NCBI GenBank assembly: GCA_964649985.1
Contig: CAZYQX010000006.1
Coordinates: 11,839 to 75,838 of the forward strand
Direction: 5' to 3'
Source: an uncultured Pseudomonadales bacterium
Lineage (GTDB): Bacteria; Pseudomonadota; Gammaproteobacteria; Pseudomonadales; CAZYQX01
Length of the DNA: 64,000 bases
Part shown: positions 2,043 to 38,847 of the stretch, in pieces
How the letters are laid out: the number at the start of each line of letters is the position of its first letter
How positions within the stretch are numbered: position 1 is the first letter of the stretch
Translations under genes and position numbers: made by a program
Notes under the pieces: generated by a model
What the model saw: the letters and a program-made list of their open reading frames with translations, nothing else
Told to the model about the DNA's origin: nothing
Databases searched by the model: none

Positions 2043-2061
2043 ACCAACGCGAGAGGCCGCC

Positions 2062-4146
2062 ATGCAGCAACTAAAATCCTCCCAGATCTCGCTGCCTGCA
2101 GTGCTACTGGTGGACGACAAACCCAGCAACCTACTGAGTTTGCAGGCAGTGCTAGATGAGTTGGGCACGCCCTTGCTCACAGCCAACTCCGGTGAAGAGG
2201 CATTGACCACATTGTTGCTGCACGACATCGCCCTTGTGCTACTGGACGTGCAAATGCCCGACATGGACGGCTATGAAGTAGCACGCCTGATGCGCTCCAA
2301 CCCCCGCACACGCAAGATCCCGGTAATCTTCATCACCGCCAACGCCCTCGACGAGCGCTCTGCCATGCTCGGCTATGAAGTCGGCGCGATGGACTACATC
2401 TACAAGCCCGTGAGCGGGAACATCCTGCGTAGCAAAGTGCGTGTAGTGCTTGAGCTTGAAGCCTCGCGCAAGGCACTGGTTCGCGCCAACCAAGAGCTGA
2501 CCGCTTCTCGCAGTTACTACTCCACCATTCTGTCAACGGCCGCCGAGGGCATCCTGGTGGTCAACCCCGAAGGCGTGATTGACTACGCCAACCCCGCCGC
2601 CAGCATGATGCTGAGTGAGGCGGCGGAGCTAGTCGGCACACCACTCCCCCAGCTCCTTACTCCCCCGGGGGAAAACCTGGTGCCTTGGAATGCCTCTGCC
2701 TACTATGCCAAGTGGCACCAAGGCCTGACTTACCGGCAGATGGACACCACCCTCTACACGCTGGACCACCGCTCAATTCCGGTCAGCCTTTCCTGCTCGC
2801 CCCTACCCATTCCACTCACGGGTATGGTGATCGTGTTCCAAGACATCTCCCTCGCCAAAGAGCTTCAACTGCGCTTGGAGCAGCAGGCCGTCACCGACTC
2901 ACTCACCGGATTGCTCAACCGGCACGGCTTCATGCAAGCACTGGCCAATACCATCGCCAGACACGAAAGAAGGCGGGAGAAATCACTCGCCCTACTCTAT
3001 CTGGATCTGGACGGCTTCAAAGTCGTCAACGACAGCCTGGGGCACGAAGCCGGCGACCAACTACTGGAAGTCTTCGCCCAGCGGCTACGAAAATGCCTTC
3101 GCCCCTACGACCTCATTGCCCGACTGGGTGGCGACGAATTCGCCGTGCTGGTCGATAGCATCGAGAGCAACGTCGACAGCGAGCGCATCGCCCAGAAAAT
3201 TCTTCGCACGCTACAGCATCCCATCGAGGTATTCGGCCATCAGGTCAACGTCGGTGCCAGCATCGGCATCGCCGAATACCACGAGGTTGGCAAATCACCC
3301 GAAGCGCTGCTGCAAGCGGCCGACATGGCGATGTATCAGGCCAAGCGCACAGAGCGCAATACCTACCGTTTCTTTACCCAAGAAATGAATTTCCAGGCAA
3401 GGGCTCGCCGCCTACTGGAGGAAAGCCTGCGCAATTCCATCGCTTCACACCGTTTCAAATTACACTATCAACCTCAGATCAACCTAGCCGACGGCAGCCT
3501 GCGTGGTCATGAAGCGCTGGTGCGGTGGGAGCATGAGGCCGCTGGCACTATCATGCCGAGCACATTCATCCCCCTGCTTGAAGAAACGGGCCTGATTCAT
3601 CAGCTCGGCCCCTGGATCATCCGCGAAGCATGCAAGCAAAACCTCGCCATGCAAAACGCCGCCATCGATAAAAAAATAATCGCCATCAACATCTCTGCCC
3701 ACCAGTTCACTCAGCGCGATCTGGTAGAAGACATTCGGATAATTCTGCAGGAAACCGAGCTGAACCCCGAGTTGATCGAACTTGAGCTGACTGAAGGCAC
3801 CCTGATGAAGGACGTAAGCAACACCAAGAAACAGCTCTGGGGACTGAAAAACCTGGGGCTTAAACTAGCCATCGATGACTTCGGAACAGGCTATTCGTCA
3901 CTCGCGTACTTGAAGCAATTCCCAATAGATGTGCTGAAGATCGACCGCAGCTTCGTCGTGCACTGTCACCACGCCAAACGCGACCAAGCGATTATCGACA
4001 CGATCCTGCAGCTGGGCCGCAATTTAGGCCTGAGCGTGATCGCCGAGGGGGTGGAGACGCGCGCCCAGGCAGATTGGTTGAAGCAGCATGGCTGCAGCAT
4101 CGCCCAAGGCTACCTGTTTGGCAAACCCTCCCCTGCCACACCCTAG
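2062..4146 (+). CDS. Response regulator diguanylate cyclase/phosphodiesterase (REC-PAS-GGDEF-EAL)
   Basis: ATG at 2062 after GAGAGG; REC LLDVQMPDMDG; RPYDxxxRLGGDEF (I-site and active site); HEALVRW; DDFGTGYSSL. Confidence 0.95.
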   Translation: MQQLKSSQISLPAVLLVDDKPSNLLSLQAVLDELGTPLLTANSGEEALTTLLLHDIALVLLDVQMPDMDGYEVARLMRSNPRTRKIPVIFITANALDERSAMLGYEVGAMDYIYKPVSGNILRSKVRVVLELEASRKALVRANQELTASRSYYSTILSTAAEGILVVNPEGVIDYANPAASMMLSEAAELVGTPLPQLLTPPGENLVPWNASAYYAKWHQGLTYRQMDTTLYTLDHRSIPVSLSCSPLPIPLTGMVIVFQDISLAKELQLRLEQQAVTDSLTGLLNRHGFMQALANTIARHERRREKSLALLYLDLDGFKVVNDSLGHEAGDQLLEVFAQRLRKCLRPYDLIARLGGDEFAVLVDSIESNVDSERIAQKILRTLQHPIEVFGHQVNVGASIGIAEYHEVGKSPEALLQAADMAMYQAKRTERNTYRFFTQEMNFQARARRLLEESLRNSIASHRFKLHYQPQINLADGSLRGHEALVRWEHEAAGTIMPSTFIPLLEETGLIHQLGPWIIREACKQNLAMQNAAIDKKIIAINISAHQFTQRDLVEDIRIILQETELNPELIELELTEGTLMKDVSNTKKQLWGLKNLGLKLAIDDFGTGYSSLAYLKQFPIDVLKIDRSFVVHCHHAKRDQAIIDTILQLGRNLGLSVIAEGVETRAQADWLKQHGCSIAQGYLFGKPSPATP

Positions 4147-4198: not shown

Positions 4199-5983
4199 TC
4201 AAAGCGATGATGGCGGCTGCAGCTTGCTCAATGGCTCATCGAGCAGCGCGATGCCCCTGCCCATGCTTTGCAATTGATACATGTGCTGGTAGAGCCCGTT
4301 CTGCGCCACCAGCTCTGCATGCCGGCCGCGCTGTGCAATACGCCCCTGATGCAACACAATGATTTCATCGGCCTCCACCACCGTCGAGAGCCGATGAGCA
4401 ATCACCACCACGGAAAGACGACCACGCAACGCCAGCAGCGAGCGCTGAATGATGGCTTCCGACGGCGAGTCGATGCTGGCGGTTGCTTCGTCCAGGATCA
4501 GCACATCTGGATGGCGCGCCAGCGCTCTCGCCATGGCCAGCAACTGGCGCTGGCCAGTGGATAAATTGACTCCCCGCTCACCCAGCGGCGTGTCGTAGCC
4601 TTCCGGCAAGCGGGCAACGAAATCGTGCAACCCTGCAGCACGCGCAGCGGCCTCAATCTCATCCGCAGACAGCCGCGCACCAAAGGCAATATTGTCACCG
4701 ATACTGGCGGCAAAAATGAACGGATCCTGCTGAACAAACACCACCCGTCGATGGAAGTCCACGGCGGCTATCTGCTCCAGCGGCAGACCTCCCAGCGCAA
4801 TGCCCCCCGCAGACGGGGTATACAACCTCATCAGCAGACTGGCCAAGGTGCTCTTGCCACTTCCGGTGTGGCCTACGAGCGCCATAAAGCGGCCAGCAGG
4901 CAGGAAGAGATCAATGTTTTTCAGCACCTGAACCTGGCCGTCGTAACTGAACGACACGTCCCTCACCCGCAAGTCAAGCCCACCCGGCGGAAGCGGCAGA
5001 TGTCCTCGCGGGGATTCAGGCAAATCCTGCAGTTCAAATACCCGCCCCCCTGCCACAATCGCCTGTTGTACCAGATTCAAGCGCTGGGTCATTTCAATCA
5101 CGGGTTCGGCAAAGCGTCCCAGATAGTTGATGAACACATAGATCAAGCCGATACTGGCCCCCGTCTCCAGCGAACGGGCGCCGAAGTAGAATAGCAACGC
5201 CGCCAAGGTCGCCAGCTGTAGCAGATCGATCAATGGGCGCAACAATGCCGCATCCAGCTTGAGATTTTGCACCCGCGCCCGATAGTGTGATGAGGAGACT
5301 TGCTCGAAATCAGACGCGAACCGTTGCGTCTGGGCAAATAGTTGCACCAGACGCATGCCTTGAATCGACTCCGACAAACGCGCATTGATCTCCCCCAGCC
5401 AGCTGCGCACCGCCTGCATTCTTGGCGCACTCAGGCGCTGATACGCCAGCATCACCCCCACCACAGCGGGCACAAAGACAGCGCAGGGCAACATCAGGCG
5501 CCAGTCCAATAGGGACATCGCCACAAGAATTCCCAACACCCGCACACCATTGCCGACAAAGGTACCCAACGCATTGACATAGAGTTCTTTGATGGCCTCG
5601 GTATCATTCGTCAGACGGGACGTCAGCTGACCCGAAGGGTGATGGTCGAAGTAGCTCATCGGATGGCGCAGCAAAGCCTCGAAGGCGGCATTTCGCACGC
5701 GCTCGATGGCTCCCAGCGCTATGCGGTGAAAGCTGAGCGCTTGCGCATAACCCGCCGCCGCCGCCACCAGATAAAGCAACACATAAGCACCGGCCAACAT
5801 CATCAGGGGGCCGATAGCCCAATTACCCGCAGTCACATGATTGTCAATGAAATGCTTGATCAATAGAGGCGCCGTGACATCGGCAGCGGTTGCCAACAGC
5901 ACCAGCACCATCGCTTGCCGAAACAAAGAACGATCAGCAGCGGCCTCTCGGAACAAGCGGCGGGAGACAGGAGAAAAAAGCAC
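4199..5983 (-). CDS. mdlB: Multidrug-type ABC transporter, fused permease/ATPase, MdlB-like
   Basis: ABC TMD then Walker A GHTGSGKS, signature LSTGQRQL, Walker B ILDEATA; SSGQLTSRLTNDTEAIKELY-type segment typical of MdlB. Confidence 0.85.
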   Translation of the reverse strand: MLFSPVSRRLFREAAADRSLFRQAMVLVLLATAADVTAPLLIKHFIDNHVTAGNWAIGPLMMLAGAYVLLYLVAAAAGYAQALSFHRIALGAIERVRNAAFEALLRHPMSYFDHHPSGQLTSRLTNDTEAIKELYVNALGTFVGNGVRVLGILVAMSLLDWRLMLPCAVFVPAVVGVMLAYQRLSAPRMQAVRSWLGEINARLSESIQGMRLVQLFAQTQRFASDFEQVSSSHYRARVQNLKLDAALLRPLIDLLQLATLAALLFYFGARSLETGASIGLIYVFINYLGRFAEPVIEMTQRLNLVQQAIVAGGRVFELQDLPESPRGHLPLPPGGLDLRVRDVSFSYDGQVQVLKNIDLFLPAGRFMALVGHTGSGKSTLASLLMRLYTPSAGGIALGGLPLEQIAAVDFHRRVVFVQQDPFIFAASIGDNIAFGARLSADEIEAAARAAGLHDFVARLPEGYDTPLGERGVNLSTGQRQLLAMARALARHPDVLILDEATASIDSPSEAIIQRSLLALRGRLSVVVIAHRLSTVVEADEIIVLHQGRIAQRGRHAELVAQNGLYQHMYQLQSMGRGIALLDEPLSKLQPPSSL

Positions 5984-6535: not shown

Positions 6536-8101
6536 TCAAAATGGGTCAGGAAATTCCGCGCGCAGTTTCACGATCTGATCAAGCTGCTGTTCAAGCACCA
6601 TGATAACCTCAGGATCAAACTGCTTGCCTTCCTGGCCGCGCATATACTCCATCACTTTCTCCAGCGGCCAGGCCTCCTTATAGCAGCGCTTGCTGCCCAG
6701 CGAATCAAATACATCGGCCACCGTTACAATGCGGCACATCAGGTCAATTTCGTCCCCAGCCAACCCTTGTGGATAGCCGCTTCCATCCCAATGCTCATGA
6801 TGTTGTGCGGCGATTACCGCTCCCATCCGAAGCACTTCACTCTTTGCATTTTTGAGCATGTTGTGGCCAATCATGGCATGGGATTTCATGACCTCCCACT
6901 CATCTGGCTCAAACTTGCCGGGTTTGTGTAATACGGCATCGGGGATCGCCACTTTGCCTATATCGTGCAGCGGCGCCGCCAATTTGATCATCTGGCATTC
7001 ATCATCGCTGTAGCCAAGCGCCTGGGCCAAAATATACGCCATGTGCGCCATGCGTTTGACATGCCCGCCCGTCTCTTGGGAGCGCAGCTCCATGGACTCA
7101 CCCAGGATATAAGACAACTCACTCTGGGTATCGCGTACCCGCTCGCGCAGGATGATGCTTTCGTAGGCCACCGCTACATTGTGCGAGAACACATCCAATA
7201 ACTGGTAATCCATGGGCGAAAGCGGCTGAGACAACTTCACATACAGCACGTTTTCACTCCCGCGCCGGGTCGTGTAATAACCGACGAACTGATCACCCAG
7301 ATTCAGCGAATGGTGCTCCCCCAGCGCCAGGCGAATCTTGGTCTGTACCTCACGCGGAATGACGGCCTCGACCTCCCCGTCCGTTTCTTGAAAATAATTT
7401 GGCGTGGCCGCCAGAACCTCTAGTTTCCCCGGGGTTTCTTTTGAGGCAACCGCCGATAGCACGTTGCAATAAACGGCATCACCTTCCAACCCCAGCAGCC
7501 CTGTGATCTGGGTGAGCACGGCAGAGGCGAGCTCAACCAGATTGTTGCTTTCAAACACATGACCAATGGCTTCAATCGCCCGCTCAAGCCCTGCACGATT
7601 GCGCTCGATCGCAATGATGTCTCGGTAAGCACGCAGCGCTGCATAGAGCAGTGTCTTGAGTTTGATCGAGGTGAGTTCGGTCTTGTTCTTGTAATCGTTG
7701 ATATCGTAATCGCGAATCACCGACTCTTCTGGAGCCTGCCCCGGCTGGCCGGTGCGCAGCACTATGCGCACGGAGAAATTCTGTAATTCCTCCCTGATAA
7801 AGCGCACCAAGTTCAGCCCGGCGTGGTCCTCTTCCATTACCACATCCAGCAGTGCCAGGGCGATATCCGGATGCGCCAGCAAAATCTCCCTCGCCTCTGC
7901 ACCTGAGTAGGCCGAAAATATCTGCAGCGCCTGCCCGTCAAATCTGAAGTCACGCAGCACCATCTGTGTGACTTGATGAACCTCAGGTTCATCATCAGCC
8001 ACCAGAATCTTCCACCTATGACCGGCCTGGCCCGATTCAGCCAATACCGAAGCGGTTTCCTGCTGGGAACCATCGCCCGCAAACAGAAAATCATCGCTCA
8101 T
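6536..8101 (-). CDS. Response regulator HD-GYP c-di-GMP phosphodiesterase (REC, DUF3369-like, HD-GYP)
   Basis: REC LVADDE and LLDVVMEE; ETGGHVKR, LHDIGK, HHEHWDGSGYP, ADVFDSL. Confidence 0.93.
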   Translation of the reverse strand: MSDDFLFAGDGSQQETASVLAESGQAGHRWKILVADDEPEVHQVTQMVLRDFRFDGQALQIFSAYSGAEAREILLAHPDIALALLDVVMEEDHAGLNLVRFIREELQNFSVRIVLRTGQPGQAPEESVIRDYDINDYKNKTELTSIKLKTLLYAALRAYRDIIAIERNRAGLERAIEAIGHVFESNNLVELASAVLTQITGLLGLEGDAVYCNVLSAVASKETPGKLEVLAATPNYFQETDGEVEAVIPREVQTKIRLALGEHHSLNLGDQFVGYYTTRRGSENVLYVKLSQPLSPMDYQLLDVFSHNVAVAYESIILRERVRDTQSELSYILGESMELRSQETGGHVKRMAHMAYILAQALGYSDDECQMIKLAAPLHDIGKVAIPDAVLHKPGKFEPDEWEVMKSHAMIGHNMLKNAKSEVLRMGAVIAAQHHEHWDGSGYPQGLAGDEIDLMCRIVTVADVFDSLGSKRCYKEAWPLEKVMEYMRGQEGKQFDPEVIMVLEQQLDQIVKLRAEFPDPF

Positions 8102-8289: not shown

Positions 8290-11200
8290 ATGCCTGTCGC
8301 TGAGGCCCCCCAACAACGCGCCCATCTGTGGGTGGTTCGCGCCACTGCATGCACCCCCTCCGGCCTGTGGGATATGCTGCGTGCATGGGGTTTTGAAATC
8401 AGCTTTCATGACCTACCACCCCAGTGTGAGGCTGATCGGGCATGCGTCGTGATATACGAGCTGGCAAATGCCGAACAGGCCCGCGCACTTTGCCTCCAGC
8501 AACAGGCCCCCAAGACCAAACACCCCTGGATTGCACTCTGCGACCCGGTCGATACCGAGGCACTCACAGCGCTGGTGCTGGCGGGCATGAGCCAGCACCA
8601 CTGCCCGGCCCTTGCGGATGCACTTCTGCGTCAGATTGGCAGCACCAAGGCTCTGCAACTTCTCGGCGATCAGCCGCCGCTGGTGGCGCTGCTGGGAGGC
8701 GAGCAAATTCCGGGGCTTGAAGCCGCTCTGGAGCAACAAGGTCTGCAATGCCAAAACAGATGCTCACTGAGCGACTGGCTAGGCCTAGTGCGTGAAACAG
8801 CCCCGGCGCTGATGATCGTCGTCGGAAATTCCAACACGCAAGCCTTGTCGCACATCATGTACGCCGCACGCCAACAGCATCGGCGACGCCTCAACCTCAG
8901 CGCGATCATCTGGACTGATGACACGGCTCCCGGCGAGGATCTGCTCGAGGCAAGTGACCTGCTGCTGAGGCAAAGTGAACATAGCAACGCCGAGATGGCC
9001 GCATTACTTGCCCGCAGAGCATGGCGAGGCGTGAGGGAAAGTGCATTCCGACGCCATGACCAACAATTGGAGCGCTGTGGCAATCAATGGCTGATGGCCA
9101 GGGAGCACTTGCTGGTCACGCTCACCGACATCAACGGCAAACGCATCTACGTCAGTGAAAAGCTGTGCGAACGCACGGGTTATAGTGCTGCAGAACTACT
9201 GGGTCAGTCGGTCGAGGTCATTACCCACATGGCCGATATACCGAGCATTCGCAGCACCCTTAGCCACCAACACAGCTGGAATGGCATGCTGGAAACCGTG
9301 GCTGCCAATGGCGAACAAATCCTGTTCGAGACCCACGTAATCCCACTGCTGAATGAACTGGGAGAAGTCCATCAATACCTCGGCCTGCTGACGGACGTCA
9401 CCGAGTCCCACCGCTTGCAACAACAAGCATTGCAGCAAAACAACGAGTTACAGTCCATTCTGGATGCAATTCCGGCCATGGTGTTGCAAAAGGACCGGCA
9501 GGGCAAAATCATCCGGGTCAACCAGACCGCCGCCCAGGTGATGGCAAGTCAACGGGAACAGATGGAAGGGCGTGCGGTCGACGACGTGTTCACCCGCCCG
9601 GACAATCATCGACTCAGCGACAACATCATCCTCGAGCATCGCACGCCGGTTAACAACATTATCGATCAGCACATACACCCCGATGGTCGCACGGTGTGGA
9701 TGCGCACCGACAAGACCCCACTGCTCGGCCCCGACGGGGAAGTTAGCAGCATCGTATCCTGCGTGTTTGATGTTACCGAACAGCAGCGCACACTGGCGGC
9801 GCTGGCGGAAAGCGCCGAACGGCTACATCGAAGCCAGTCTTATGCGCAAGTAGGTACCTGGGACTGGGATCTGCAGACCCAGGAAGTACACATCTCGGAG
9901 GAGTATGCCTCGGTGTGTGGTTTGCCCCCTGGCACCAAGACCATACACAAAAGTGCCTTGGTGGAGCGCATGCCGCCAGAAGACCACCAGGTCATGATTC
10001 AAACCTTTCTTGGCCACCAAAACAGCGGCGAGCAGCAGCCGCGTTTCGAGGCCGATCACCGTCTGATAATGCCGGATGGCAGCCTGCGTTGGGTTCAACA
10101 ACGCGGGAATCTGTTGCGCGACAATGATGGCCGGCCATTGCGTCTGATGGGCATCTGTCAGGACATCACCCGCCGCAAGCTGGCCGAGGCAGAAGCGGAA
10201 CGCCAAAGCCAGCTGCTGGCGGTGCTTCACACGGCGGCATCCCGCTATGTCGAATCACTGCAAGCCGAAGAAACCTCCTCATTTTTAATCAGTGCCTTGC
10301 TCAAGCTCACCGGCAGCAGCTTTGGCTTCATCGCTGAAGTACTGCCCAATGAGCATGAGGCACCCGCACTGCGCATCGTGGCCGCTGGCGCACTCGACCC
10401 AGAAGAAAATGTTCACTGTGAAAAACTGATTGGTAAACGCCTTGCGTCTCACGATGCCTTTGTCCAACAAATCATGGTGCAAAGCCCGGCACTACTAGCC
10501 TCTGCGGAGGCCGAATGTGTCCAGGAAATCGGCAAAGCGCTGCCGGCTTTCAAACAGTTCATGGGCATTCCCATTTTTAGGGAATCAGCCTTGGTGGGCA
10601 TGCTCGCCATTGCCAATCGGGACGGGGGCTTTAGCGAAGCGCTGGTGGATTTCCTCGCTCCCTTCTGTTCCACCTGTGGCGTACTGATTCATGCCAGCCA
10701 GATGGAACACAGTCGCCAAGCCCAGCAGCTGGCCTTGCGTCAGGCCAAAGAGGATGCGGAAAGCGCCAACCGGGCAAAATCGAATTTTCTCTCCAGCATG
10801 AGTCACGAGCTCCGCACGCCGCTGAATGCCATCCTGGGCTTTGCCCAGCTCATGGATCCAGAGCAACTCGCCAGCGAGCAGCGCACTTATGTTCAGCAGA
10901 TCGAACAAGCTGGCTGGCATTTGCTTGAGCTCATCAACGATGTGCTCGACTTGGCACGTATCGAATCCGGTCGCCTTCAATTACAGCAGGACGCCATAGC
11001 GCTGGACGAGCTTCTGCGCGAGTGCACCACCCTGGTGAAACCGTTGGCAGAACAACACGGCGTGGATTTGCGCTATGTGTCGCCCCCCGCCGGAGGCTAC
11101 TTGGCCGGCGACCGCACCCGGATTCGGCAAATACTGATCAACCTGCTTTCCAACGCCATCAAGTACAACCGGCGCGGTGGCTGGGTAGACCTGAAGGTTG

Positions 11201-11943
11201 ACGAAAGCCCCCTTGCCGCGGGACCTGGCTGGCAAATCGAAATCCGCGACTCCGGCATGGGCATGAATGCGGAGCAGTTGAGCCAGTTGTTTGAGCCCTT
11301 CAACCGACTGGGCGCAGAAAAGCTCGGCATCGAAGGCACAGGTATTGGCCTTGCGATCACCCAGCGACTTCTCCAGCTGATGCATTCTGATCTACAGGTC
11401 GAAAGTAAGTTGGGACAGGGCAGTCGTTTCTGGTTCACACTGCCGTCTGCCGAACCGGCCATGAACATAGAGCCTTTAGCGGCGCCAATAGACAGCTTTT
11501 TTGAGACCACAGCTGTAACCGCCCGCACCGTTCTCTACGTGGAAGATAACGCCACCAACCTGTTTCTGGTAGAGAAGCTGCTGCGCCGGCTACCCGGCGT
11601 AACATTGCTATGTGCCAGCACGGCCGCCGAAGGGCTGGCGTTGGCAGAGGCCACCCCGCCAGATCTGCTGTTACTCGACATCCAGCTACCCGACATGAAC
11701 GGCTACCAGCTGCTGCACCAACTGCGGCAACGCCCCGCCACACAACATACCCCCGCCATTGCGCTCAGCGCTAATGCCATGCCCAAGGACATCGCTATGG
11801 GGCTGGAAGCCGGTTTCGCCGAATACATGACCAAACCCCTGCAGGTCACGGCTTTCCTGACGAGCATAGGCCGTGCCTTAGCGTGCACGGTGAAATCCAC
11901 CGCCGACGCTGAGAGTACTCATCAGCCCAGCGAGGTCTGCTAA
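8290..11943 (+). CDS. Multi-PAS/GAF hybrid sensor histidine kinase
   Basis: Three PAS/PAC repeats, GAF-like segment, FLSSMSHELRTPL, NLLSNAIKYN, GTGIGL, C-terminal REC LLDIQLPDMNG. Confidence 0.92.
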   Translation: MPVAEAPQQRAHLWVVRATACTPSGLWDMLRAWGFEISFHDLPPQCEADRACVVIYELANAEQARALCLQQQAPKTKHPWIALCDPVDTEALTALVLAGMSQHHCPALADALLRQIGSTKALQLLGDQPPLVALLGGEQIPGLEAALEQQGLQCQNRCSLSDWLGLVRETAPALMIVVGNSNTQALSHIMYAARQQHRRRLNLSAIIWTDDTAPGEDLLEASDLLLRQSEHSNAEMAALLARRAWRGVRESAFRRHDQQLERCGNQWLMAREHLLVTLTDINGKRIYVSEKLCERTGYSAAELLGQSVEVITHMADIPSIRSTLSHQHSWNGMLETVAANGEQILFETHVIPLLNELGEVHQYLGLLTDVTESHRLQQQALQQNNELQSILDAIPAMVLQKDRQGKIIRVNQTAAQVMASQREQMEGRAVDDVFTRPDNHRLSDNIILEHRTPVNNIIDQHIHPDGRTVWMRTDKTPLLGPDGEVSSIVSCVFDVTEQQRTLAALAESAERLHRSQSYAQVGTWDWDLQTQEVHISEEYASVCGLPPGTKTIHKSALVERMPPEDHQVMIQTFLGHQNSGEQQPRFEADHRLIMPDGSLRWVQQRGNLLRDNDGRPLRLMGICQDITRRKLAEAEAERQSQLLAVLHTAASRYVESLQAEETSSFLISALLKLTGSSFGFIAEVLPNEHEAPALRIVAAGALDPEENVHCEKLIGKRLASHDAFVQQIMVQSPALLASAEAECVQEIGKALPAFKQFMGIPIFRESALVGMLAIANRDGGFSEALVDFLAPFCSTCGVLIHASQMEHSRQAQQLALRQAKEDAESANRAKSNFLSSMSHELRTPLNAILGFAQLMDPEQLASEQRTYVQQIEQAGWHLLELINDVLDLARIESGRLQLQQDAIALDELLRECTTLVKPLAEQHGVDLRYVSPPAGGYLAGDRTRIRQILINLLSNAIKYNRRGGWVDLKVDESPLAAGPGWQIEIRDSGMGMNAEQLSQLFEPFNRLGAEKLGIEGTGIGLAITQRLLQLMHSDLQVESKLGQGSRFWFTLPSAEPAMNIEPLAAPIDSFFETTAVTARTVLYVEDNATNLFLVEKLLRRLPGVTLLCASTAAEGLALAEATPPDLLLLDIQLPDMNGYQLLHQLRQRPATQHTPAIALSANAMPKDIAMGLEAGFAEYMTKPLQVTAFLTSIGRALACTVKSTADAESTHQPSEVC

Positions 11944-12053
11944 GCAGCTGGCGAGCACAGGCCTAGCGCAGCGTTGCTCGCCGGCGTTGCGCTAGCGCTC
12001 AGATCACGGTGGCCGCCGAGTTTGGCGCGCGGCTTGGCCCAGCCCCACCCTGA

Positions 12054-12722
12054 TCAGGGCGCGTCGACATCGGACGAGTTAGCCACTGCACCCGGGGCAC
12101 CCGCCTTGTCGGACAAGCCCTGCAGCAACCACTCCAGCGGCGCCTGTAAGCGATCCCCCAAGGCGGCCTGCCCAAGCGCTGGCCAATGGGTGGCAACATG
12201 CGGAAACGCTGAGCAGACCCCGCCCTCAAACGCAGGCAAACGCCCGGCCAGGTGCCTTGAGAACGAAGCTTCCAGGCTGGCCGCGCCAATCACACACTGC
12301 ACCATGGCCAATTGAGCCTGCAACGCCAGAGACGGGCTGAAGCCATCCCGCATCATCACCACGATGCCCTGTTCCAATACCTGCAGTGCATGGGGGCCTA
12401 ACCTGACACGGCCAAACAAGGCAACCCAGCCAGGCTCGGCTTGCAGGGCCGTGTGCATGTGGCGTGCAACATGGCGCATCCACGCCTGCCAATGCATGTC
12501 TGAAGCAGGCAACACATCCGCCTGTTGAATAAAGCGATCCAACATGGCGGCTTGCAGGGTGTCCCAATCCTTCACGTGCCGATAGACGGCCATCGGCGTC
12601 ACGCCCAGGGCTGAGGCAATACGGCGTATGCTGAGCTGCTCAAATCCGTGTTCCCGCGCCAGTTGCAGACCGGTTTCGATCAACAGCTCAAGGGACAAGG
12701 CGCGCTTTACTGGCCGGGACAC
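12054..12722 (-). CDS. TetR/AcrR-family transcriptional regulator with TetR_C-like domain
   Basis: HTH LSIRRIASALGVTPMAVYRHV; start overlaps the P450 stop. Confidence 0.92.
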   Translation of the reverse strand: MSRPVKRALSLELLIETGLQLAREHGFEQLSIRRIASALGVTPMAVYRHVKDWDTLQAAMLDRFIQQADVLPASDMHWQAWMRHVARHMHTALQAEPGWVALFGRVRLGPHALQVLEQGIVVMMRDGFSPSLALQAQLAMVQCVIGAASLEASFSRHLAGRLPAFEGGVCSAFPHVATHWPALGQAALGDRLQAPLEWLLQGLSDKAGAPGAVANSSDVDAP

Positions 12723-14512
12723 GATGCTGCCTTCTCGCTATTGAGTGATGGCCCATTGTAAGCGCAGCAGGGTGCACACTCGAAGGCTAGCGGCATCGCC
12801 TTCAGGGTCCTGGCAAACATGCTGGCTTCAAAGGGCGTATCCCCCCGAATGGCAAAGCGGGTGGTACGCGCCAGCAGCCTAGTGATGACGATGCGGATCT
12901 CCATCCGCGCCAGCTCCCGGCCAATACACGCATGCACCCCGTGGCCAAAGGTGAGGTGTTTTTTTAGGTTGGGCCGGTCGATGTCGAACTCATCCGGCCG
13001 CTCCCAGAAACGCTCGTCGCGGTTGCCCGAGGCCCACATCAGGAATACCCGGCTGTTGGCGGGGATTTTCACCCCGTGCAGTACACTATCTCGCGTGCTG
13101 AGGCGAAAATGGCCTTGAAACGCCGCCTCGGTGCGGAAGACCTCTTCGATGAAATCTGGGATGCGCTCGGGCTCCCGGCGCAGCCGCTGCTCGATCTCAG
13201 GGTGCAATGCCAGCATGCGGATGGCATTGCCCATGGAGCTGGCCGAGGAGTCGGAGCCAGCGATCAGCAGCTGTAACATGATGGAGACGGCCCGGGCGTC
13301 GGTCATCACACTCTGCGGGTCTTTGGCCTGGCGCACCAACAAGCCGGTGAAGTTGTCGCCGGGTGCTCGCTGGGCCATCTGGTAGTGCCGCCACAGGTAG
13401 CGCATGAACTGGGCACTGGCACAGCCGGCGCGCAGCGACTCCGGCCCCCGCACCACGCCGCTGAGCTGGCGAATGCCAATCTCACACCAGCGTTTGATTT
13501 GGGGATAGTCCTGCTCCGGCAGCCCAAGCAGGCGAATGATCAGGCGCATCGGCAAACGCCAGGCGAAGTCCTGAATGAACTCCACCCTGCCCCGGGCCAG
13601 GAACTCGTCCATCATCTCGTCGCATAGCGCCACCACTTCTGGCTCCAGCGATTTAACGAAATGGGCATTGAAGCCGGTGTGGGCAATTTTGCGCTCTTGA
13701 CCATGAATGGGAGGATCTTGCAGCGCCAACACATCTGCGGGCAGGACGCCCCAAAGCCCCAGGCGCTCGGCCAAAGAGGGGCCAGTACGGTCCGGATCGC
13801 GGGGGCGGCCAGTAACCAGAATTTCGGTCAGATGCGACGAGAAACCCTCGGTATCCCTGGCCAGGGCGACGATATCCTCATAGCGGGAAATATTGAAGAA
13901 ATCCGTACCTGGCAGCTGGTACACAGGAAAACGATCCCGCAACAAGCGGTAGTAAGGGTAAGGGTCGGTGAAGTTATGCCTACTGAGGGGCTGAAAGTCC
14001 TCGGGCCGCTGAGGATCGAGAGGCGGAATGGGCGCTGCTCGGCGCGGTCGCGGCGGCGCGTGCAGCGCGCGCCAGGTCGCCCATCCCAGCAGCAGCTCGA
14101 TCGGTGCTAACAAGCCGTGCACCGACCACAGCGGCACGCCCAGGGCAAAGCCCAGCAGTCGACCGGCCGCCGAGCCCCAGGCCAGGGCGATCACCACCCA
14201 CAGCCCGGCGCGGCGCCCCTCGGGCTGACCGGCCAAGGCCACCAGCACCATGCCCAAAGCCAGCAGAAAACTGCCGTAGTAAGCGCGGATGTCGCCCAGC
14301 GCCACCGCCGACAACTGGCGGAAATCAAACACCTCGGCCATCGCTTGCGGGGCCAGCAGGAAAGCAGCCCCCGCCAACACACAGACCAACCCCACCCACA
14401 GCAACAGGCGAGACGGGCCGCGCACACCGATATACCAAGCCAGCAGCCGCATAGCCGCTTCAAAGGCCCAGGACGCCAGCCACCGGCGGGCATGAAACAG
14501 GAGATTAGCCAT
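12707..14512 (-). CDS. Cytochrome P450 with N-terminal DUF4345-like membrane domain
   Basis: Heme motif FGHGVHACIG (12920-12949), ExxR (EEVFR), I-helix LIAGSDSS; N-terminal about 150 aa has several hydrophobic helices and DIRAYYGSF...GRLLG. Confidence 0.88.
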   Translation of the reverse strand: MANLLFHARRWLASWAFEAAMRLLAWYIGVRGPSRLLLWVGLVCVLAGAAFLLAPQAMAEVFDFRQLSAVALGDIRAYYGSFLLALGMVLVALAGQPEGRRAGLWVVIALAWGSAAGRLLGFALGVPLWSVHGLLAPIELLLGWATWRALHAPPRPRRAAPIPPLDPQRPEDFQPLSRHNFTDPYPYYRLLRDRFPVYQLPGTDFFNISRYEDIVALARDTEGFSSHLTEILVTGRPRDPDRTGPSLAERLGLWGVLPADVLALQDPPIHGQERKIAHTGFNAHFVKSLEPEVVALCDEMMDEFLARGRVEFIQDFAWRLPMRLIIRLLGLPEQDYPQIKRWCEIGIRQLSGVVRGPESLRAGCASAQFMRYLWRHYQMAQRAPGDNFTGLLVRQAKDPQSVMTDARAVSIMLQLLIAGSDSSASSMGNAIRMLALHPEIEQRLRREPERIPDFIEEVFRTEAAFQGHFRLSTRDSVLHGVKIPANSRVFLMWASGNRDERFWERPDEFDIDRPNLKKHLTFGHGVHACIGRELARMEIRIVITRLLARTTRFAIRGDTPFEASMFARTLKAMPLAFECAPCCAYNGPSLNSEKAASCPGQ

Positions 14513-14524
14513 ACTCAGGCCTCG

Positions 14525-14562
14525 ATGTATACACCATATACACATGTATACACTGTATACAT
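14525..14562. promoter_or_regulatory. Tandem 19-bp palindromic operator, probably bound by the TetR protein
   Basis: ATGTATACA-C-TGTATACAT (14544-14562, perfect) abutting degenerate ATGTATACA-C-CATATACAC (14525-14543), 13 bp upstream of the P450 ATG. Confidence 0.75.
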
Positions 14563-14577
14563 TGTGCCGACAAGCCC

Positions 14578-16323
14578 TCAATGCCCGGCGCGCACCACCT
14601 CCTCCATTTGCTGGTAGCGCCAAGTGTGCGCATACCACCCCCCGGCAGCCAGCAATGCCTCGTGGCTACCACGCTCCAGCAGCTGGCCATGCTCCAGCAC
14701 CAGGATCAGATCCGCATCCTCCACGGCCGATAAGCGGTGACTGACGATGACCCGGGTCAGCCCCCGGCTGGCCTCGTTCAAGTGATCGAGAATGCGCCGT
14801 TCAGTGGCGGCATCCACCGCAGACAGGGCATCGTCCAGCAACAGCACTGGCGCCCCCATCATCAACGCCCGTGCGATCCCGACCCGTTGCTTCTGCCCAC
14901 CCGACAATGTCACGCCGCGCTCTCCTACACGGGTCCGATACCCCTCGGGGAAACGCCGGATATCATCATCCAGGGAGGCCAGCTGGGCACAGCGCTCCAC
15001 CTCGCTAGGCGACGCGCCCGGGCACCCCAGGGCGATATTCTCGGCAATGCTGGTGGAAAACAGGAAGGGGTCCTGAGGGACTACCGCCATCAGCCGGCGC
15101 AGGGCATCCAGGCGGTAGTGCTGCAATTGTTCACCCCCCAGATGAATCTGAACGCCGGGTGCCTCGTAGAGCCGCAGCAGCAGGTTCAGCAGGGTGGTCT
15201 TGCCGGCCCCCGTGGGCCCCACGATACCCAGGGTAGCCCCTGCCGGTAGCTGGAAGTGGATGTTCGCCAGTGCCGGGGGCAGCTCAGCGCGGTAGCGGAA
15301 ATCACTGATATCTACCCGCAGGCTGGCTTCGGCCAGCGTCTCCCGCTGCCCATCGTCCTGCATGGCAGGCGGCGTGTCCAACAACTCATTTATGCGGTTG
15401 TAAGCGGCGCTGCCGCGCTCCACCAGGCTCATCAGCCAGCCGTAGGCGAACATGGGCCAGATCAGTTGGGTCAGATACATGGTGAAGCTGGTGAGCTGGC
15501 CGATGCTGAGTTCGCCGCTATGGATCAGCCAGGCACCCCCGGCCACGCTGAGGCCAAAAGAGGCTCCCACGGTGAGCGAGATCACCGGGTCATAACGGGC
15601 ATCCACCCGCGCCACCGCCAGGTTGGCGCGCGAAGTGTCCGCCGCAATAGCGGCAAAGCGCTCGGCCGCCAGCGCCTCCTGGCCGAAGGACTTCACCGCC
15701 CGAATACCACCCACGTGTTCCTGCACACAGTCATTAAGCCGACTGAACTGCGCCTGAGCGCCATCGAAGGCCACGTGCAACTGCTCGCCAAACTGGTACA
15801 TATACCAGGCCATCACCGGCCAGGGCAGCAAAGCCAACAGCGTCAGTTTCCAGCTGAACACCAGGCTCATCACGCCTAGCACCAGGGCGCCGGTGAGCAC
15901 ACCGTCAAACAAGGTAAGCACCCCCTCCCCGGCCAATAATTCCACAGCGGTGACGTCATTAGTGGCCCTGGCCATCAGATCGCCGGTGCTCCAGCGTTGA
16001 TAGAACGCCGGGGACTGGCGCAGCAGTTGCTGATAGATGCGCTCCCGCAGCACTACCGCCAGCCGGTAAGACGTGCCATAGAGCACGCTGCGCCAACCGT
16101 AGCGCAACACATAGACCAGCACGGCGGTGGCGGCAATACCGCCGCTGGCCAAGGCCAGTTCACGCCCATCCAGCGTGCGGGCAGCCACGCCATCCACCAC
16201 GTAGCCCACCACCGCCGCGGGCACCAGATTGAGCACCGCCACACAGCTAAGCATGGCCACGGCAATGCCATAGGCGCGCCAGTGCTGGCGGAAATACCAA
16301 CTGAGGTTGAGAAAGGCTGTCAC
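14578..16323 (-). CDS. mdlA: Multidrug-type ABC transporter, fused permease/ATPase, MdlA-like
   Basis: TGDLMARATNDV, GEGVLTLFD, Walker A GPTGAGKT, LSGGQKQR, LLDDALSAVD. Confidence 0.88.
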   Translation of the reverse strand: MTAFLNLSWYFRQHWRAYGIAVAMLSCVAVLNLVPAAVVGYVVDGVAARTLDGRELALASGGIAATAVLVYVLRYGWRSVLYGTSYRLAVVLRERIYQQLLRQSPAFYQRWSTGDLMARATNDVTAVELLAGEGVLTLFDGVLTGALVLGVMSLVFSWKLTLLALLPWPVMAWYMYQFGEQLHVAFDGAQAQFSRLNDCVQEHVGGIRAVKSFGQEALAAERFAAIAADTSRANLAVARVDARYDPVISLTVGASFGLSVAGGAWLIHSGELSIGQLTSFTMYLTQLIWPMFAYGWLMSLVERGSAAYNRINELLDTPPAMQDDGQRETLAEASLRVDISDFRYRAELPPALANIHFQLPAGATLGIVGPTGAGKTTLLNLLLRLYEAPGVQIHLGGEQLQHYRLDALRRLMAVVPQDPFLFSTSIAENIALGCPGASPSEVERCAQLASLDDDIRRFPEGYRTRVGERGVTLSGGQKQRVGIARALMMGAPVLLLDDALSAVDAATERRILDHLNEASRGLTRVIVSHRLSAVEDADLILVLEHGQLLERGSHEALLAAGGWYAHTWRYQQMEEVVRAGH

Positions 16324-16412
16324 GGGATGGGGCTCCTGAGCAAAGAATCAGCCCGTATGATGGAGGCACAGAACGTATCCACCCGGCATACCAGGGTATG
16401 CAGGGGTATACG

Positions 16413-16436
16413 AAAAAGGGCGGCCAATGCCGCCCT
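16413..16436 (-). terminator. Rho-independent terminator after argG
   Basis: Minus strand AGGGCGGC-attg-GCCGCCCT followed by a T run. Confidence 0.75.
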
Positions 16437-16454
16437 CCTTCACTCAGCCACTGC

Positions 16455-17669
16455 TCAGAGCAGCTTGCGGCCCTTGCCGGCAGCAATGCGCATGCGCAGG
16501 GCGTTGAGCTTGATGAAGCCCTCGGCGTCCTTCTGATTGTAGGCGCCGCCGTCGTCTTCGAAGGTGGCGATGTTCACGTCGAACAGCGAGTCGTCGGATT
16601 GACGGCCGGCCACGATCACATTGCCCTTGTACAGCTTCAGACGCACCACACCGTTGACGTTCTGCTGGCTGTAGTCGATGGCCTGTTGCAGCATCTGGCG
16701 CTCGGGGCTCCACCAATAGCCGTTGTAAACCAGGCTGGCATAGCGCGGCATCAGCTCGTCTTTCAGGTGAGCCACTTCGCGATCCAGGCACAGGCTCTCG
16801 ATGGCGCGGTGGCCCTTGAGCAGGATGGTGCCACCGGGGGTCTCGTAGCAACCGCGGGACTTCATGCCCACGTAGCGGTTTTCCACCAGGTCCAGACGGC
16901 CGATGCCGTTGGCGCCACCCACTTTGTTCAGGTGCTCCAGCACGGTGGCGGGGCTCATTTCCACGCCATCGATGGCCACCACGTCACCGTGGCGATAGGT
17001 CAGCTCGATGTAGGTGGCCTGGTCGGGCGCCGCCTCGGGGGAGACAGTCCAGCGCCACATGTCTTCCTCGGCCTCGTGCCAGGGGTCTTCCAGGATCTGG
17101 CCTTCGTAGCTGATGTGCAGCAGGTTGGCATCCATGGAGTAAGGCGATTTCTTGCCGTAGCGGTCCACCGGAATGCCGTGCTGCTCGGCGTAGTCGAGCA
17201 GCTTCTCGCGGGACATCAGATCCCACTCGCGCCAGGGGGCAATCACGCGGATGCCCGGCTTCAGCGCGTAGGCGCCCAACTCGAAGCGCACTTGGTCGTT
17301 GCCCTTGCCGGTGGCGCCGTGAGAGATGGCATCGGCGCCCACTTCGTTGGCGATTTCCACCAGGCGCTTGGCGATCAGCGGGCGGGCGATGGAGGTGCCC
17401 AGCAGGTACTCGCCTTCATAGATGGTGTTGGCGCGGAACATCGGGAACACGAAGTCGCGCACGAACTCCTCGCGCAGATCGTCGATGTAGATCTGCTTCA
17501 CGCCCCACTGCTCGGCCTTGGCGCGCACCGGCGCCAGCTCTTCGCCCTGGCCGATATCGGCGGTGAAGGTCACCACTTCACACTGATAGGTGTCTTGCAA
17601 CCACTTGAGGATGACGGAGGTGTCCAGGCCGCCGGAATAGGCCAGCACGACCTTTTTGATGTCTGCCAT
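16455..17669 (-). CDS. argG: Argininosuccinate synthase
   Basis: [33 protein letters not shown]. Confidence 0.98.
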
Positions 17670-17757
17670 AGTTGTTTCGCTCCGGAAAAGCTGATCGCGC
17701 GCAAAGTCGCACATTGTAACGCCTGTGTGCGTTACTGGCACTCGCTTGGTGATTTGT

Positions 17758-20447
<2,690 letters not shown>

Positions 20448-20451
<4 letters not shown>

Positions 20452-22778
20452 GCGCGCCCCCCGCCAAAGTGCGCCAAACATTCCCCCAGGGCGTGCAGCG
20501 TCACCGGCTTGACCAAGCACGCGTCCATGCCCACGGCCAGGCACCGCACGCGATAGTCCTCCGTGGCATGCGCCGTCAGTGCGATCACGGGCAGGTGTCG
20601 CCCCGATTCATGGGCCCGAATGCGCCGGGTGGCTTCCAAGCCATCCATAACCGGCATTTCACAATCCATCAATACCAGATCCAAGCACGGGTCCTGCTCC
20701 AGTTTCGCCAACGCCTCGGCACCATTGAGGGCACGTTCAGCTTCGTGCCCCAAGCGCTTCAAGAGGCCGCGTGTTACACACCAGTTGACATCGTTGTCCT
20801 CTGCCACCAACACGCGCAAGGATCTTGCCTCAACCACAGAGTCCCGGGGTGCTGCTTGGGGCACCTCGTTCGGGCCAACCACCGGCAGCAGAGGAATCCA
20901 GAAGTGGAAGTCACTCCCCTGCGCCATGGCACTGCTGACACCAATCTCCCCGCCCATCAAGGTCACCAATTGGCGGCAGATCGAGAGGCCCAAGCCCGAT
21001 CCCCCTAGGCGCCTCGCGCCGCTTGATTCCAACTGTTCGAAACGGCTGAATAATCTTGCCATGTCATCCGGGCGAATCCCCATACCGGAGTCGCGCACTG
21101 AAAAAATCAGCCGATCGTTCTCAACCGCCACGCTGAGGTGCACCTGTCCGCGTTCGGTAAACTTGAACGCATTGCTCACAAGATTCACCAGCACCTGCCT
21201 CAAGCGCGAGGCATCAGCCTCCACCACCGTAGGCACGCCAGGTGCCACCGACATCTCAAGCGGCACATCGCGCTCAAGGCTCTTGGTGTAAAAGATATCT
21301 CGCACATCTTTCAACAATCGCTCGATGCTCACGGAGTCACGCACCAGCTGTAATTGCCCCGCCTCAATGCGCGAATAATCGAGAATATCGTTCACCACGC
21401 CCATCAAGGCTTGGCCCGAGGTATTGATCATCCCCAAGTACTTGCGCTGGTCTTCATTCAAGCGCGAGTCATCCAGCAATTGAGCCATACCCAGCACCCC
21501 GTTCAGCGGCGTGCGAATTTCATGGCTCATGCGCGCCAAAAAATCGCTCTTGAACTGGCTGTTAAGCACGGCCCGCAAGGCCTGGCGCTCGCTCTCCTGA
21601 TCCTGCCGCCTAAGCAGCACGAAGCGGTAGCCGGCGCTCGCGGTAAATAACACCACATTGATGCCCTGCTGCATCAAGGACAGCGCCATCAAATGATCCA
21701 AGTCTGATCGGAAAAAGGCGCTGGGCAGCACTTGCAATACAAACACCGCCAAAGAAAACAAGATGGATACCGCAATAAGCATGCCCCCGATACTGACAAG
21801 CTGCCGCCAGAGTATCACCAGGCCAATGGCGGGGGTCAGAAGTAGCCCCCCGGTTAGTGCGATCAACACCAGGGTCTGCCACATTAACGGTATGAATGGC
21901 AGCAACGACAGAAAGACCGCCATGGCCATCACCTGCCCGTTCGCAGCGCGTTCAAGCCAGGGGACTCTGGTGCCGACATTCAGCATTTGAAGAACAAATT
22001 TCACGTAGGCCATGCTGGTCAGGCCAGACGCCAGGGCAATGACATACTGTTGAAAGGCAGTGGCCTCTGGCCACCAGCGGTAGCCGTAACCATAGCCAAT
22101 CGAAATCAGAAGGCCGATGCCCAACACGTAGAGTAGAAACCAGCCATAGAGGCTCTCCCGCACCACCAACCACACCAACGCAATTGCCACCGCCACGGAC
22201 AACAGTGCCCCGGTGAGCAGACCAAACCGGCCATCACGGCGTGCAACCTGATCGACAAAGTGGTTCTCACCAAACAACATCATTTTGAAACGCACTATCG
22301 CCCCGCCGGAAATGCGCAGCAGATAGTCGCGCTCCCGACCCTCAGCAAGCAGCAGGGGAATGGCAAAGTTTGGCCCCAATATTGGGCGCCGGTGGTATGG
22401 CAAGGTATCGCCCACCTCGGCTAGCCGCAGGTAGCCACGCTCCGATTTCTCAAAAAGCTCAATGCGATCAAGCAGAGGATTGCTGATCATCAAAACTGCA
22501 TGGCGATCCGAGCCCGGCGACGCACCCACCCGAAAATGCAGCCACACGGGGGCGCGCGTGAAGCCAAGGTAAACATTAATTGGATCAGCTGGAGAAAACG
22601 CACCTTGGGCATAGCGGGAGGCGGCCCCCTGAACATCCAGCTGCTCACGATCGACCAGGTAAGCGGCGCCGGGCAGCAGGCTCTGCGCCGCGCCCACCGT
22701 CAGCAACTCGGCACGTGTGCCGCCAGCAAATAAGGCACTGAGCGCCAAGAGACAAAGCCAACCAGCTCTGCTCAACAC
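20448..22778 (-). CDS. 7TM-DISM hybrid sensor kinase, copy 2 (start approximate)
   Basis: [20 protein letters not shown], 7TM region, [28 protein letters not shown]. Confidence 0.88.
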
Positions 22779-23108
22779 GCCGAAAGCCTCATTCGCTCGG
22801 CATATGTGGCAACAGCGTATCCCTGTATCACCCGTCCCCCCATCGCGACCCGCCACGCTGATGCAGAGCAGGTACTCACAACAGCATTTATTGGGCGCCG
22901 CTAAAAAGCGGCCCCCCCACAGAAAACACCACAAGACGCCAGAAACGCCGCTGACAGAGTAATGTGCTGACAGACACCCCGCGCATACACAGATCCATGC
23001 ACATACCGGGAAACGTCCAATAACCTATTGCCGCTTGTGGCTCAGCGCCAGATGTTCCCTAACATCCAAGCATAGCCCGAACATTCCTAGGCGCACGGGC
23101 CTATAGAT

Positions 23109-25439: not shown

Positions 25440-25644
25440 AGCACCCCCCAGGCATGCATCCGAGCACCATATGCCGATGCTGCAGCTCAGCCACACGCGC
25501 TTCTAACACATTTATTCTAGCGCCGCCCAACAACACTGCCCGCACATCCTGCGAATGCGCAAATATCCCGCTAGAATTGCTGCAGCAGCGCCCCCATCTA
25601 GGCTAGGATGCTGCCCCCAGACCGTTAGCTCACGCAGGCCCGAC

Positions 25645-36481: not shown

Positions 36482-36618
36482 GCTCATTCCTTTTCCCTGC
36501 ATGGAAGCCGCGCACCTAGCGGGCGGGCATTTAATTCAGTATAGCCAGCCCGCGCGCCAAATCAATTTAGAACCAACATTATCTTTTGTCGAGATCAGCC
36601 CGGTAACGTACCCGAAAC

Positions 36619-38683: not shown

Positions 38684-38847
38684 GTTGTAATCCTCATGTT
38701 CCCCAGTTGGAGCCCCGCTGCGCCATTCCGGCATCTAACATGGGCCTCTTGAGAGACTAGCAGGCATTTTTGGTCGCGCCAGTCATTTCGGCACATTTTT
38801 AGCGCCCATCATGTAAAATCGCACAAAAGACTCGCAACCCAATGATT

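Follow-up and report, generated by a model that had tools for sequence, protein, structure and literature searches.

A predicted membrane-tethered cytochrome P450 of the CYP1164 family, fused to DUF4345 and paired with a TetR-family repressor, in an uncultured Pseudomonadales bacterium

Background

Eukaryotic microsomal (class II) cytochromes P450 (P450s) combine an N-terminal membrane anchor, a basic/Pro-rich hinge and a cytoplasm-facing catalytic domain, and membrane anchoring is deemed a eukaryotic trait in textbooks, which present bacterial P450s as soluble enzymes; it also constitutes a practical obstacle in P450 biotechnology. Here we analyze a bacterial gene with a comparable layout, located in a stretch of 64,000 nucleotides (the window) from an uncultured Pseudomonadales bacterium (GenBank assembly GCA_964649985.1, contig CAZYQX010000006.1, positions 11,839 to 75,838). 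The gene encodes a DUF4345 membrane domain and a class-I P450 of the CYP1164 family in one open reading frame (ORF), and lies next to a gene for a TetR-family repressor. We consider it probable that the pair specifies an inducible, TetR-controlled and inner-membrane-tethered P450 acting on a hydrophobic compound, with DUF4345 serving at least as a tether.

The parallel with microsomal P450s extends to one relative, in Ferrimonas pelagia (locus L007), where a diflavin-type reductase with flavodoxin, FAD and NAD domains is encoded next to the P450 gene. The resemblance is, however, one of function and not of membership in the eukaryote-type class II system, which is marked by a single N-terminal transmembrane (TM) helix, a class II sequence and a membrane-bound CPR partner: here the anchor is polytopic, a four-helix bundle with an extra helix in front of it; the catalytic domain is of class I in both sequence and fold, with a short, polar F-G loop; and the diflavin-type partner is confined to L007, other relatives using a ferredoxin–NADP reductase (FNR) together with ferredoxin or rubredoxin.

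Among bacterial P450s, CYP1164A1 of the gamma proteobacterium HdN1 resembles the window protein in having [FY]HxRR in an N-terminal helix, a basic linker, PEDFxP at the entry to the P450 fold and AGSDSS in the I-helix, but it is a protein of 468 amino acids (aa) without DUF4345, and in HdN1 it has no adjacent TetR. The closest solved structure, CYP144A1 of M. tuberculosis (5HDI), has the same class-I bacterial fold but is soluble, lacks both N-terminal helix and membrane domain, and is only 30% identical. Permanent union of a bacterial P450 with a second functional module is found in CYP102A1 (BM3) and in CYP116B-type enzymes, two structures of which (6kbh and 6laa) are among the PDB matches of the window P450. 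There the added modules are C-terminal soluble redox domains, whereas the window fusion carries an N-terminal, cofactor-less membrane domain and needs separate redox partners. Stand-alone DUF4345 proteins contain the same four-helix domain, with the motifs T(D/E)xRAxYGG and GR and a Glu in TM4, but measure about 120-140 aa, whereas the window domain is embedded in a P450 protein.

In regulatory modules of the TetR/TetA and AcrR/AcrAB type, a repressor gene lies beside its target gene, a palindromic operator is situated in the promoter region and the repressor regulates its own expression. The window locus likewise places a TetR gene beside its target and a palindromic putative operator in the promoter region, but the target is a P450, and tetR is downstream and apparently translationally coupled instead of divergent.

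Results and discussion

The fusion gene (12707..14512, minus strand) is defined by its ORF and by Pfam matches to DUF4345 and p450. The open frame spans 12707-14638 on the minus strand and yields 601 aa from the ATG at 14512, which is preceded 7 nt on its 5′ side by GAGG and agrees with the N-termini of homologs, located some five residues ahead of the conserved [FY]HxRR motif. The alternative GTG start at 14638 is unlikely because it would overlap the upstream gene for an ATP-binding cassette (ABC) half-transporter and read through the putative operator. The ORF listing and the context of the ATG bear out the single uninterrupted frame of an earlier reading of the sequence (the original prediction), and a Pfam scan placed both PF14248 and PF00067 above cutoff in one protein. 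From the N-terminus, a helix (aa 2-29) is followed by DUF4345 with its four TM segments (aa 34-151), then by a Pro/Arg linker, and last by the P450, which is complete and of class I. The proposed fusion is therefore genuine, and it recurs in relatives, but it is not a plain N-terminal one: DUF4345 sits between a family-specific helix and the linker. The helix (ANLLFHARRWLASWAFEAAMRLLAWYIG; 14426..14509, minus) bears the family motif [FY]HxRRxxxS..E, present in fused proteins and in about 90 unfused relatives. The linker (APPRPRRAAPIPPLDPQR; aa 152-169; 14006..14059, minus), which joins the hydrophobic helices to the P450 as had been proposed, has almost invariant P167 and P170 in the alignment of homologs. 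The full-length AlphaFold2 model (predicted local distance difference test, pLDDT, 91; predicted template modeling score, pTM, 0.86), with block pLDDT values of 86-96 in the N-terminal helix and about 87-88 in the linker, suggests a defined arrangement of the domains.

The DUF4345 domain (PF14248; 14060..14413, minus) is matched by Pfam over aa 36-144 with 37.2 bits, or 41.9 bits when excised, against a cutoff of 26.5, and PF14248 is also matched in 28 of 28 fused homologs; secondary Pfam matches to DUF2065 and DUF4267 fell below cutoff and were uninformative. Hydropathy delineates four hydrophobic segments (about 36-54, 77-95, 104-124 and 128-148), AlphaFold2 places helices at 34-53, 69-94, 97-123 and 131-151, and the domain modeled alone reaches a pLDDT of 96.8. 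Pfam, hydropathy and AlphaFold2 thus agree in predicting the polytopic, DUF4345-like N-terminal part originally proposed. The motifs TDxRAYYG and GSAxGR and the TM4 Glu are shared with stand-alone DUF4345 proteins.

Averaged over 27 fused homologs, Lys and Arg residues number 5.0 in the N-terminus and 3.6 in the linker, against 0.3 in loop 1, 1.1 in loop 2 and 0 in loop 3; loop 1 has a mean of 2.4 acidic residues. This distribution predicts an N-in/C-in topology that would put the P450 on the cytoplasmic side, and the positive-inside statistics fit a predicted cytoplasm-facing catalytic domain. The mean hydrophobicity of the N-terminal helix is about 0.17-0.18 in fused and -0.04 in unfused proteins. 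Two other roles for this helix were considered and rejected. Its conserved twin Arg raised the idea of a twin-arginine translocation (Tat) signal and a periplasmic P450, but the helix is non-hydrophobic and contains conserved Glu and Arg; with a fifth TM helix, the linker, rich in K/R, would be on the outside and loop 1, which is acidic, on the inside.

The class-I P450 domain (aa 170-580; 12773..14005, minus) was delimited from PDB alignments, the AlphaFold2 model and motifs, and scores 101.2 bits with Pfam p450 (PF00067) against a cutoff of 22.8. Its heme loop FGHGVHACIG (aa 522-531; 12920-12949, minus), ExxR motif EVFR (aa 457-460; 13133-13144, minus) and I-helix motif AGSDSS (aa 418-423; 13241-13267, minus), in which Ser replaces Thr, are invariant in an alignment of 55 sequences. 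P450s of known structure align over aa 180-575, the top sequence match being CYP144A1 (5hdi, E 3.5e-61). The AlphaFold2 model matches 5hdi with a TMt of 0.88-0.90 at the sequence identity given above, and also 3buj, 5xjn and others (TMt 0.86-0.91, 5hdi included). The view that the P450 is complete is upheld by this end-to-end alignment and by the presence of all signature motifs.

P450 nomenclature requires more than 40% identity for a family and more than 55% for a subfamily. The product of HDN1F_07780 of gamma proteobacterium HdN1 (relative P0112) is CYP1164A1 (PMC7998510, supplement) and is 50% identical to the window protein over 441 aa, an identity that assigns the latter to the CYP1164 family but to a new subfamily, as it falls short of the threshold for subfamily A; formal naming is a matter for the nomenclature committee. 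Membership in CYP144 was rejected on the low identity to CYP144A1, which is below 40%, and for the same reason 'Cytochrome P450 144', the label that automated annotation gives to relatives, reflects transfer from the best hit and not a family assignment. A literature search returned no function assigned to either CYP1164 or DUF4345.

Homologs were counted as clusters at 90% identity. The first protein search gave 31 DUF4345-P450 clusters, 29 of them full-length and 2 N-truncated. A search with the DUF4345 profile (892 representative clusters at E<=1e-3, the best 150 nearly all stand-alone proteins of 120-140 aa) added the P450 fusions P0121 and P0127, and a search with P0121 revealed a second fused clade (11 clusters) and the outliers P0293 and P0380, whose membrane domain is unflagged by Pfam. 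About 45 clusters in total share DUF4345 and P450, of which 31 are at 52-73% identity to the window protein, 11 belong to the second clade and 3 are outliers. All named fused members are Gammaproteobacteria (the BD1-7 clade, Ferrimonas pelagia, and metagenome-assembled genomes, MAGs, of Spongiibacteraceae and Pseudomonadales). A scan of a genome collection with the window protein yielded L009, from a Spongiibacteraceae MAG, as the one close relative (58%); the other matches were generic P450s. DUF4345 occurs in a few architectures besides stand-alone proteins and the P450 fusion. Among DUF4345 proteins, P0122 (268 aa) consists of two tandem DUF4345 domains, and P0143 and P0154 have N-terminal Ala/Pro-rich extensions of 70-90 aa. 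The DUF4345-P450 architecture is present in databases but undescribed in the literature we searched.

It is extremely improbable that the fusion arose through faulty assembly or annotation or that the gene is decaying. The identical 601-aa protein occurs on three independent contigs from different runs, the frame is uninterrupted, and dozens of homologs with conserved catalytic motifs derive from independent projects (ENA, JGI, NCBI and Logan). Nothing was found in support of an artefact beyond mis-called starts in some relatives (P0033 and the TetR of L066) and fragmentary entries. The P0033 P450 of Sinobacterium caligoides is called too short; its true start, MHETLYHTRRLTLSYLYEGL, lies upstream in locus L067 and encodes the N-terminal helix.

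About 90 relatives of 460-480 aa, at roughly 50-55% identity, lack DUF4345 and keep the N-terminal helix. In these unfused proteins the helix leads through a basic linker to the PEDFxP entry of the P450 fold, and in fused proteins the four-TM module lies in between. In a neighbor-joining (NJ) tree of P450 domains, the 29 full-length fused proteins and the N-truncated P0004 fall in one clade, within which unfused proteins are nested at least three times (P0030/24/29, P0033 and P0054/38/39). The P450 of P0121, 42% identical to that of the window, is placed in a different, mostly unfused clade. In the corresponding tree of DUF4345 domains, the fused domains group apart from stand-alone ones except for the long-branch P0035; neither tree carries support values. 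Since the nested unfused relatives retain the N-terminal helix, the membrane module has apparently been lost repeatedly, and these trees would be read most simply as an ancient fusion from which the module cleanly disappeared many times. A profile search of six-frame ORFs at all loci found DUF4345 only inside fused genes and no separate DUF4345 gene beside unfused P450s, so the module was lost and not split off.

The second partner, a TetR-family repressor (12054..12722, minus), was recognized by Pfam TetR_N (32.7 bits, cutoff 24) and by orthologs beside the P450 in relatives; its TetR_C_1 match, at 19.7 bits, is slightly under cutoff. The start of tetR overlaps the P450 stop by 16 nt, an overlap that predicts translational coupling. 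An orthologous TetR occurs at 10 of 13 distinct loci, with identities of 63% (L004), 45% (L065), 43% (L064), 40.5% (L009), 37% (L069) and 34-36% (L005, L067, L007 and L066), so that P450 and repressor travel together across relatives; other TetRs near these loci are unrelated to the P450-linked one. The gene is divergent from the P450 in most relatives and downstream of it in the window, L004 and L069. The TetR call in L066 (5296-5982, minus) begins with MYTLYTQYTVYT, which is a translation of GTATAC operator repeats, and the real start lies about 20 codons downstream.

The promoter/operator region (14513..14577, minus), recognized by its repeats and the GAGG ribosome-binding site, contains TGTATACA at 14526-14533, 14545-14552 and 14554-14561. 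These are all three exact copies of the octamer in the 64-kb window, and they fall, at 14526-14561, within the 65-nt gap between the P450 gene and the ABC gene, with 0.3 copies expected per window; they include the 19-bp palindrome ATGTATACAgTGTATACAT. GTATAC-N3-GTATAC, TGTATACA or close variants occur within about 100 nt on the 5′ side of the P450 in nine loci, the relatives concerned being L003, L004, L005, L009, L064, L065, L066 and L067; L069 instead has the related palindrome AAAGGTTTACAtTGTAAACCTTT. A sigma-70 consensus scan of 11900-16600 returned no promoter, and TTGTCG-N17-TATACA before the P450 is a possible candidate. Phylogenetic footprinting argues strongly that the GTATAC repeats are a putative TetR operator. 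Taken together, the orthologous TetRs and the conserved repeats give good support to an inducible P450-TetR unit, in line with the P450, TetR and operator unit of the original prediction.

The favored reading of these elements runs as follows. The four-helix DUF4345 bundle, in N-in/C-in orientation, and the short basic, Pro-rich linker would hold the P450 at the cytoplasmic side of the inner membrane. TetR would bind the GTATAC repeats and repress P450-tetR until it is released by a hydrophobic small molecule, which is probably either the P450 substrate or a related compound. Electrons would be supplied by a soluble ferredoxin or rubredoxin and an FNR-type reductase, which are encoded beside the gene in relatives and presumably elsewhere in this genome, and the P450 would oxidize a compound that either partitions into the cytoplasmic membrane or passes it on entering the cell. 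Catalysis does not seem to require the membrane module, since it has apparently been shed cleanly on several occasions, with both the N-terminal helix and the TetR partner retained.

Several observations weigh against this account. The F-G loop (GVVRGPESL) is short and polar, with no hydrophobic membrane-dipping loop, and the catalytic domain looks like that of a soluble P450, which leaves room for a substrate from outside the bilayer. The window contains no redox partner, as judged by tblastn with six partner proteins of relatives, and the gene neighborhoods of relatives reveal no common pathway. Charged residues (D74, R76, R118 and E138) are conserved within the DUF4345 helices, in stand-alone members too, and exceed the need of a passive anchor.

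The last point raises the alternative, which we regard as rather unlikely, that DUF4345 is an active partner that binds, gates, hands over or senses membrane-embedded or incoming substrate for the P450. Besides the in-helix D42, R44, Y46-Y47-G48, G85-R86 and E107 (alignment A1), which are invariant or nearly so and shared with stand-alone DUF4345, it would account for the recurrence of fusion with one P450 lineage (the main clade, the P0121 clade, P0127, P0293 and P0380) and for the clustering of fused DUF4345 domains in the NJ tree; the pTM of the full-length model likewise suggests a fixed arrangement of domains. The clean losses in the main clade, at least three, are hard to reconcile with such a role, as P450, helix and TetR persist and no stand-alone DUF4345 gene lies near the unfused P450s. 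A four-helix bundle is moreover small for a transporter, and the conserved intramembrane charges may merely stabilize the bundle. When PDB was searched for the fold of the DUF4345 model, there was no significant match and no structural analogue, the best being human VKOR (E 0.95, TMq 0.45). A role of DUF4345 as electron supplier through quinol or heme binding was rejected as the principal explanation: fused relatives keep adjacent genes for soluble FNR, ferredoxin and rubredoxin, and the domain has no conserved Cys pairs or paired His.

The adjoining genes bear on the proposal that the tethered P450 belongs to a detoxify-and-export module. The P450 gene is preceded on the same strand, at a distance of 65 nt, by an SmdA/MdlA-like ABC half-transporter gene (14578..16323, minus). 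The best match of this gene, NCBIfam PRK10789 (SmdA), scores 704 bits, under the 845 cutoff, so it is SmdA-like only, and it is given here as context to the unit. An SmdB/MdlB-like half-transporter (4199..5983, minus; PRK10790, 579 bits against a cutoff of 746) is encoded 8.6 kb away. In E. coli smdA and smdB are adjacent. Here the P450-tetR pair lies between them, together with genes for a PAS/GAF hybrid histidine kinase (8290-11943, plus, by Pfam) and an HD-GYP response regulator (6536-8101, minus); the split is also seen in L004, without the response regulator. The smdA-like gene of L004 (4911-6649, plus) is called as two overlapping ORFs of 265 aa (membrane part) and 323 aa (ATPase part), a split that represents a frameshift, whether genuine or introduced in assembly.

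The P450 would, according to that proposal, oxidize a toxic hydrophobic compound at the membrane for an SmdA/SmdB-type ABC pump to expel the product. The 65-nt gap, the shared strand and the lack of any terminator predicted by consensus scan between the two genes are compatible with it, and L004 has the same arrangement. The position directly downstream of an MdlA-like exporter gene stands as originally described. The module itself is weak and in our judgment unlikely, since only the window and L004, its closest relative, show ABC adjacency, which eight other loci lack. Because the operator is downstream of smdA, TetR would not control smdA from there; upstream of smdA there is a single GTATAC hexamer, and the division of smdA and smdB by P450-tetR and two signaling genes looks like insertion, not design. 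Other transporters do recur near the P450. In Ferrimonas an RND pump (OEP-MFP-ACR_tran) follows the orthologous TetR on the same strand, and this TetR-RND unit and P450-reductase diverge, so that a single operator region could serve the two; an MMPL gene lies about 2 kb downstream in L003, and TonB-receptor genes are nearby in L065 and L069. This loose association with envelope transporters keeps the general idea of export alive.

Redox genes accompany the P450 in several relatives. An Fpr-type FNR follows it directly in L005/L006, as do rubredoxin, 7Fe ferredoxin and FNR in L065, and in L008 a CDGSH protein is encoded ahead of the unfused P0030 gene. In L007 a 582-aa rubredoxin-flavodoxin-FAD-NAD(P) fusion (9767-11515, plus) overlaps the stop of the fused P450; this diflavin-type reductase with an N-terminal rubredoxin is an unusual candidate redox partner. 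An unannotated 461-aa neighbor of the L005 P450 had no tblastn match in the window.

Genes resembling those of steroid or lipid side-chain degradation adjoin TetR-P450 in L005/L006 (3284-7153) and L065 (1-4541). They encode ChsH2-like, acyl-CoA dehydrogenase, MaoC hydratase, SCP-x-type thiolase, SnoaL/NTF2, SDR and KstD-like FAD enzyme products and are a possible hint to the substrate, although they are not seen in the window. These lipid and steroid beta-oxidation-type neighbors, an FA_hydroxylase gene in L066 and the predicted membrane tethering would also suit an enzyme that modifies an endogenous membrane lipid or isoprenoid, hydroxylating, for example, a hopanoid, quinone, carotenoid or acyl chain, with no foreign compound involved. 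We find this quite unlikely: patchy distribution and dedicated, autoregulated TetR control are typical of accessory inducible functions, and no lipid-biosynthesis genes are conserved beside the P450, with none in the window.

Further features were noted in the remainder of the window. Directly past the argG stop (about 16410-16450, minus), a GC-rich hairpin, GGGCGGCattgGCCGCCC, is followed by TTTTT and was missed by the consensus scan; it is a likely intrinsic terminator, so that smdA would have its own promoter. A 474-aa ORF (16398-17822, plus) runs exactly antisense to argG (16455-17879, minus) and is no gene but a shadow ORF of the kind usual in GC-rich DNA; the conserved MADIKK start of argG itself lies about 70 codons into the listed ORF. 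Signaling genes are unusually dense at 30-4146 and 17758-25496, besides the PAS kinase/HD-GYP pair, and comprise a CHASE/PAS hybrid kinase, a REC-PAS-GGDEF-EAL protein, two tandem 7TMR-DISM hybrid kinases and a TorS/BarA-like hybrid kinase. A long minus-strand run of genes (about 39800-60900), which includes a PseB-like sugar dehydratase fused to a polyprenyl glycosylphosphotransferase-like region, an XrtA/PEP-CTERM-associated amidotransferase (asparagine synthase-like) and a glycosyltransferase, is probably an exopolysaccharide locus. The large ORFs at 37106-38734, 35075-36502 and 25630-26757 had no family match.

Conclusions

The DUF4345-P450 design runs against the textbook rule of soluble bacterial P450s. 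The CYP1164 lineage has about 45 fused clusters as well as unfused derivatives nested among them, with a conserved N-terminal helix throughout, and offers a natural comparison in which the effect of tethering on substrate access and electron transfer is testable. TetR and its putative GTATAC operator provide an experimental route to the substrate through an inducer screen, as well as a ready-made inducible expression switch. The P450 fusion is also the only functional clue so far for DUF4345, a family of about 900 representative clusters. It is a tentative possibility, which we hold at low probability, that DUF4345 is a dedicated substrate-capture or hand-over module for membrane-embedded compounds, whose union with CYP1164 is recurrent and probably ancient. 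If true, this would give a first functional handle on DUF4345 and would reveal a prokaryotic membrane P450 system organized differently from the eukaryotic one.

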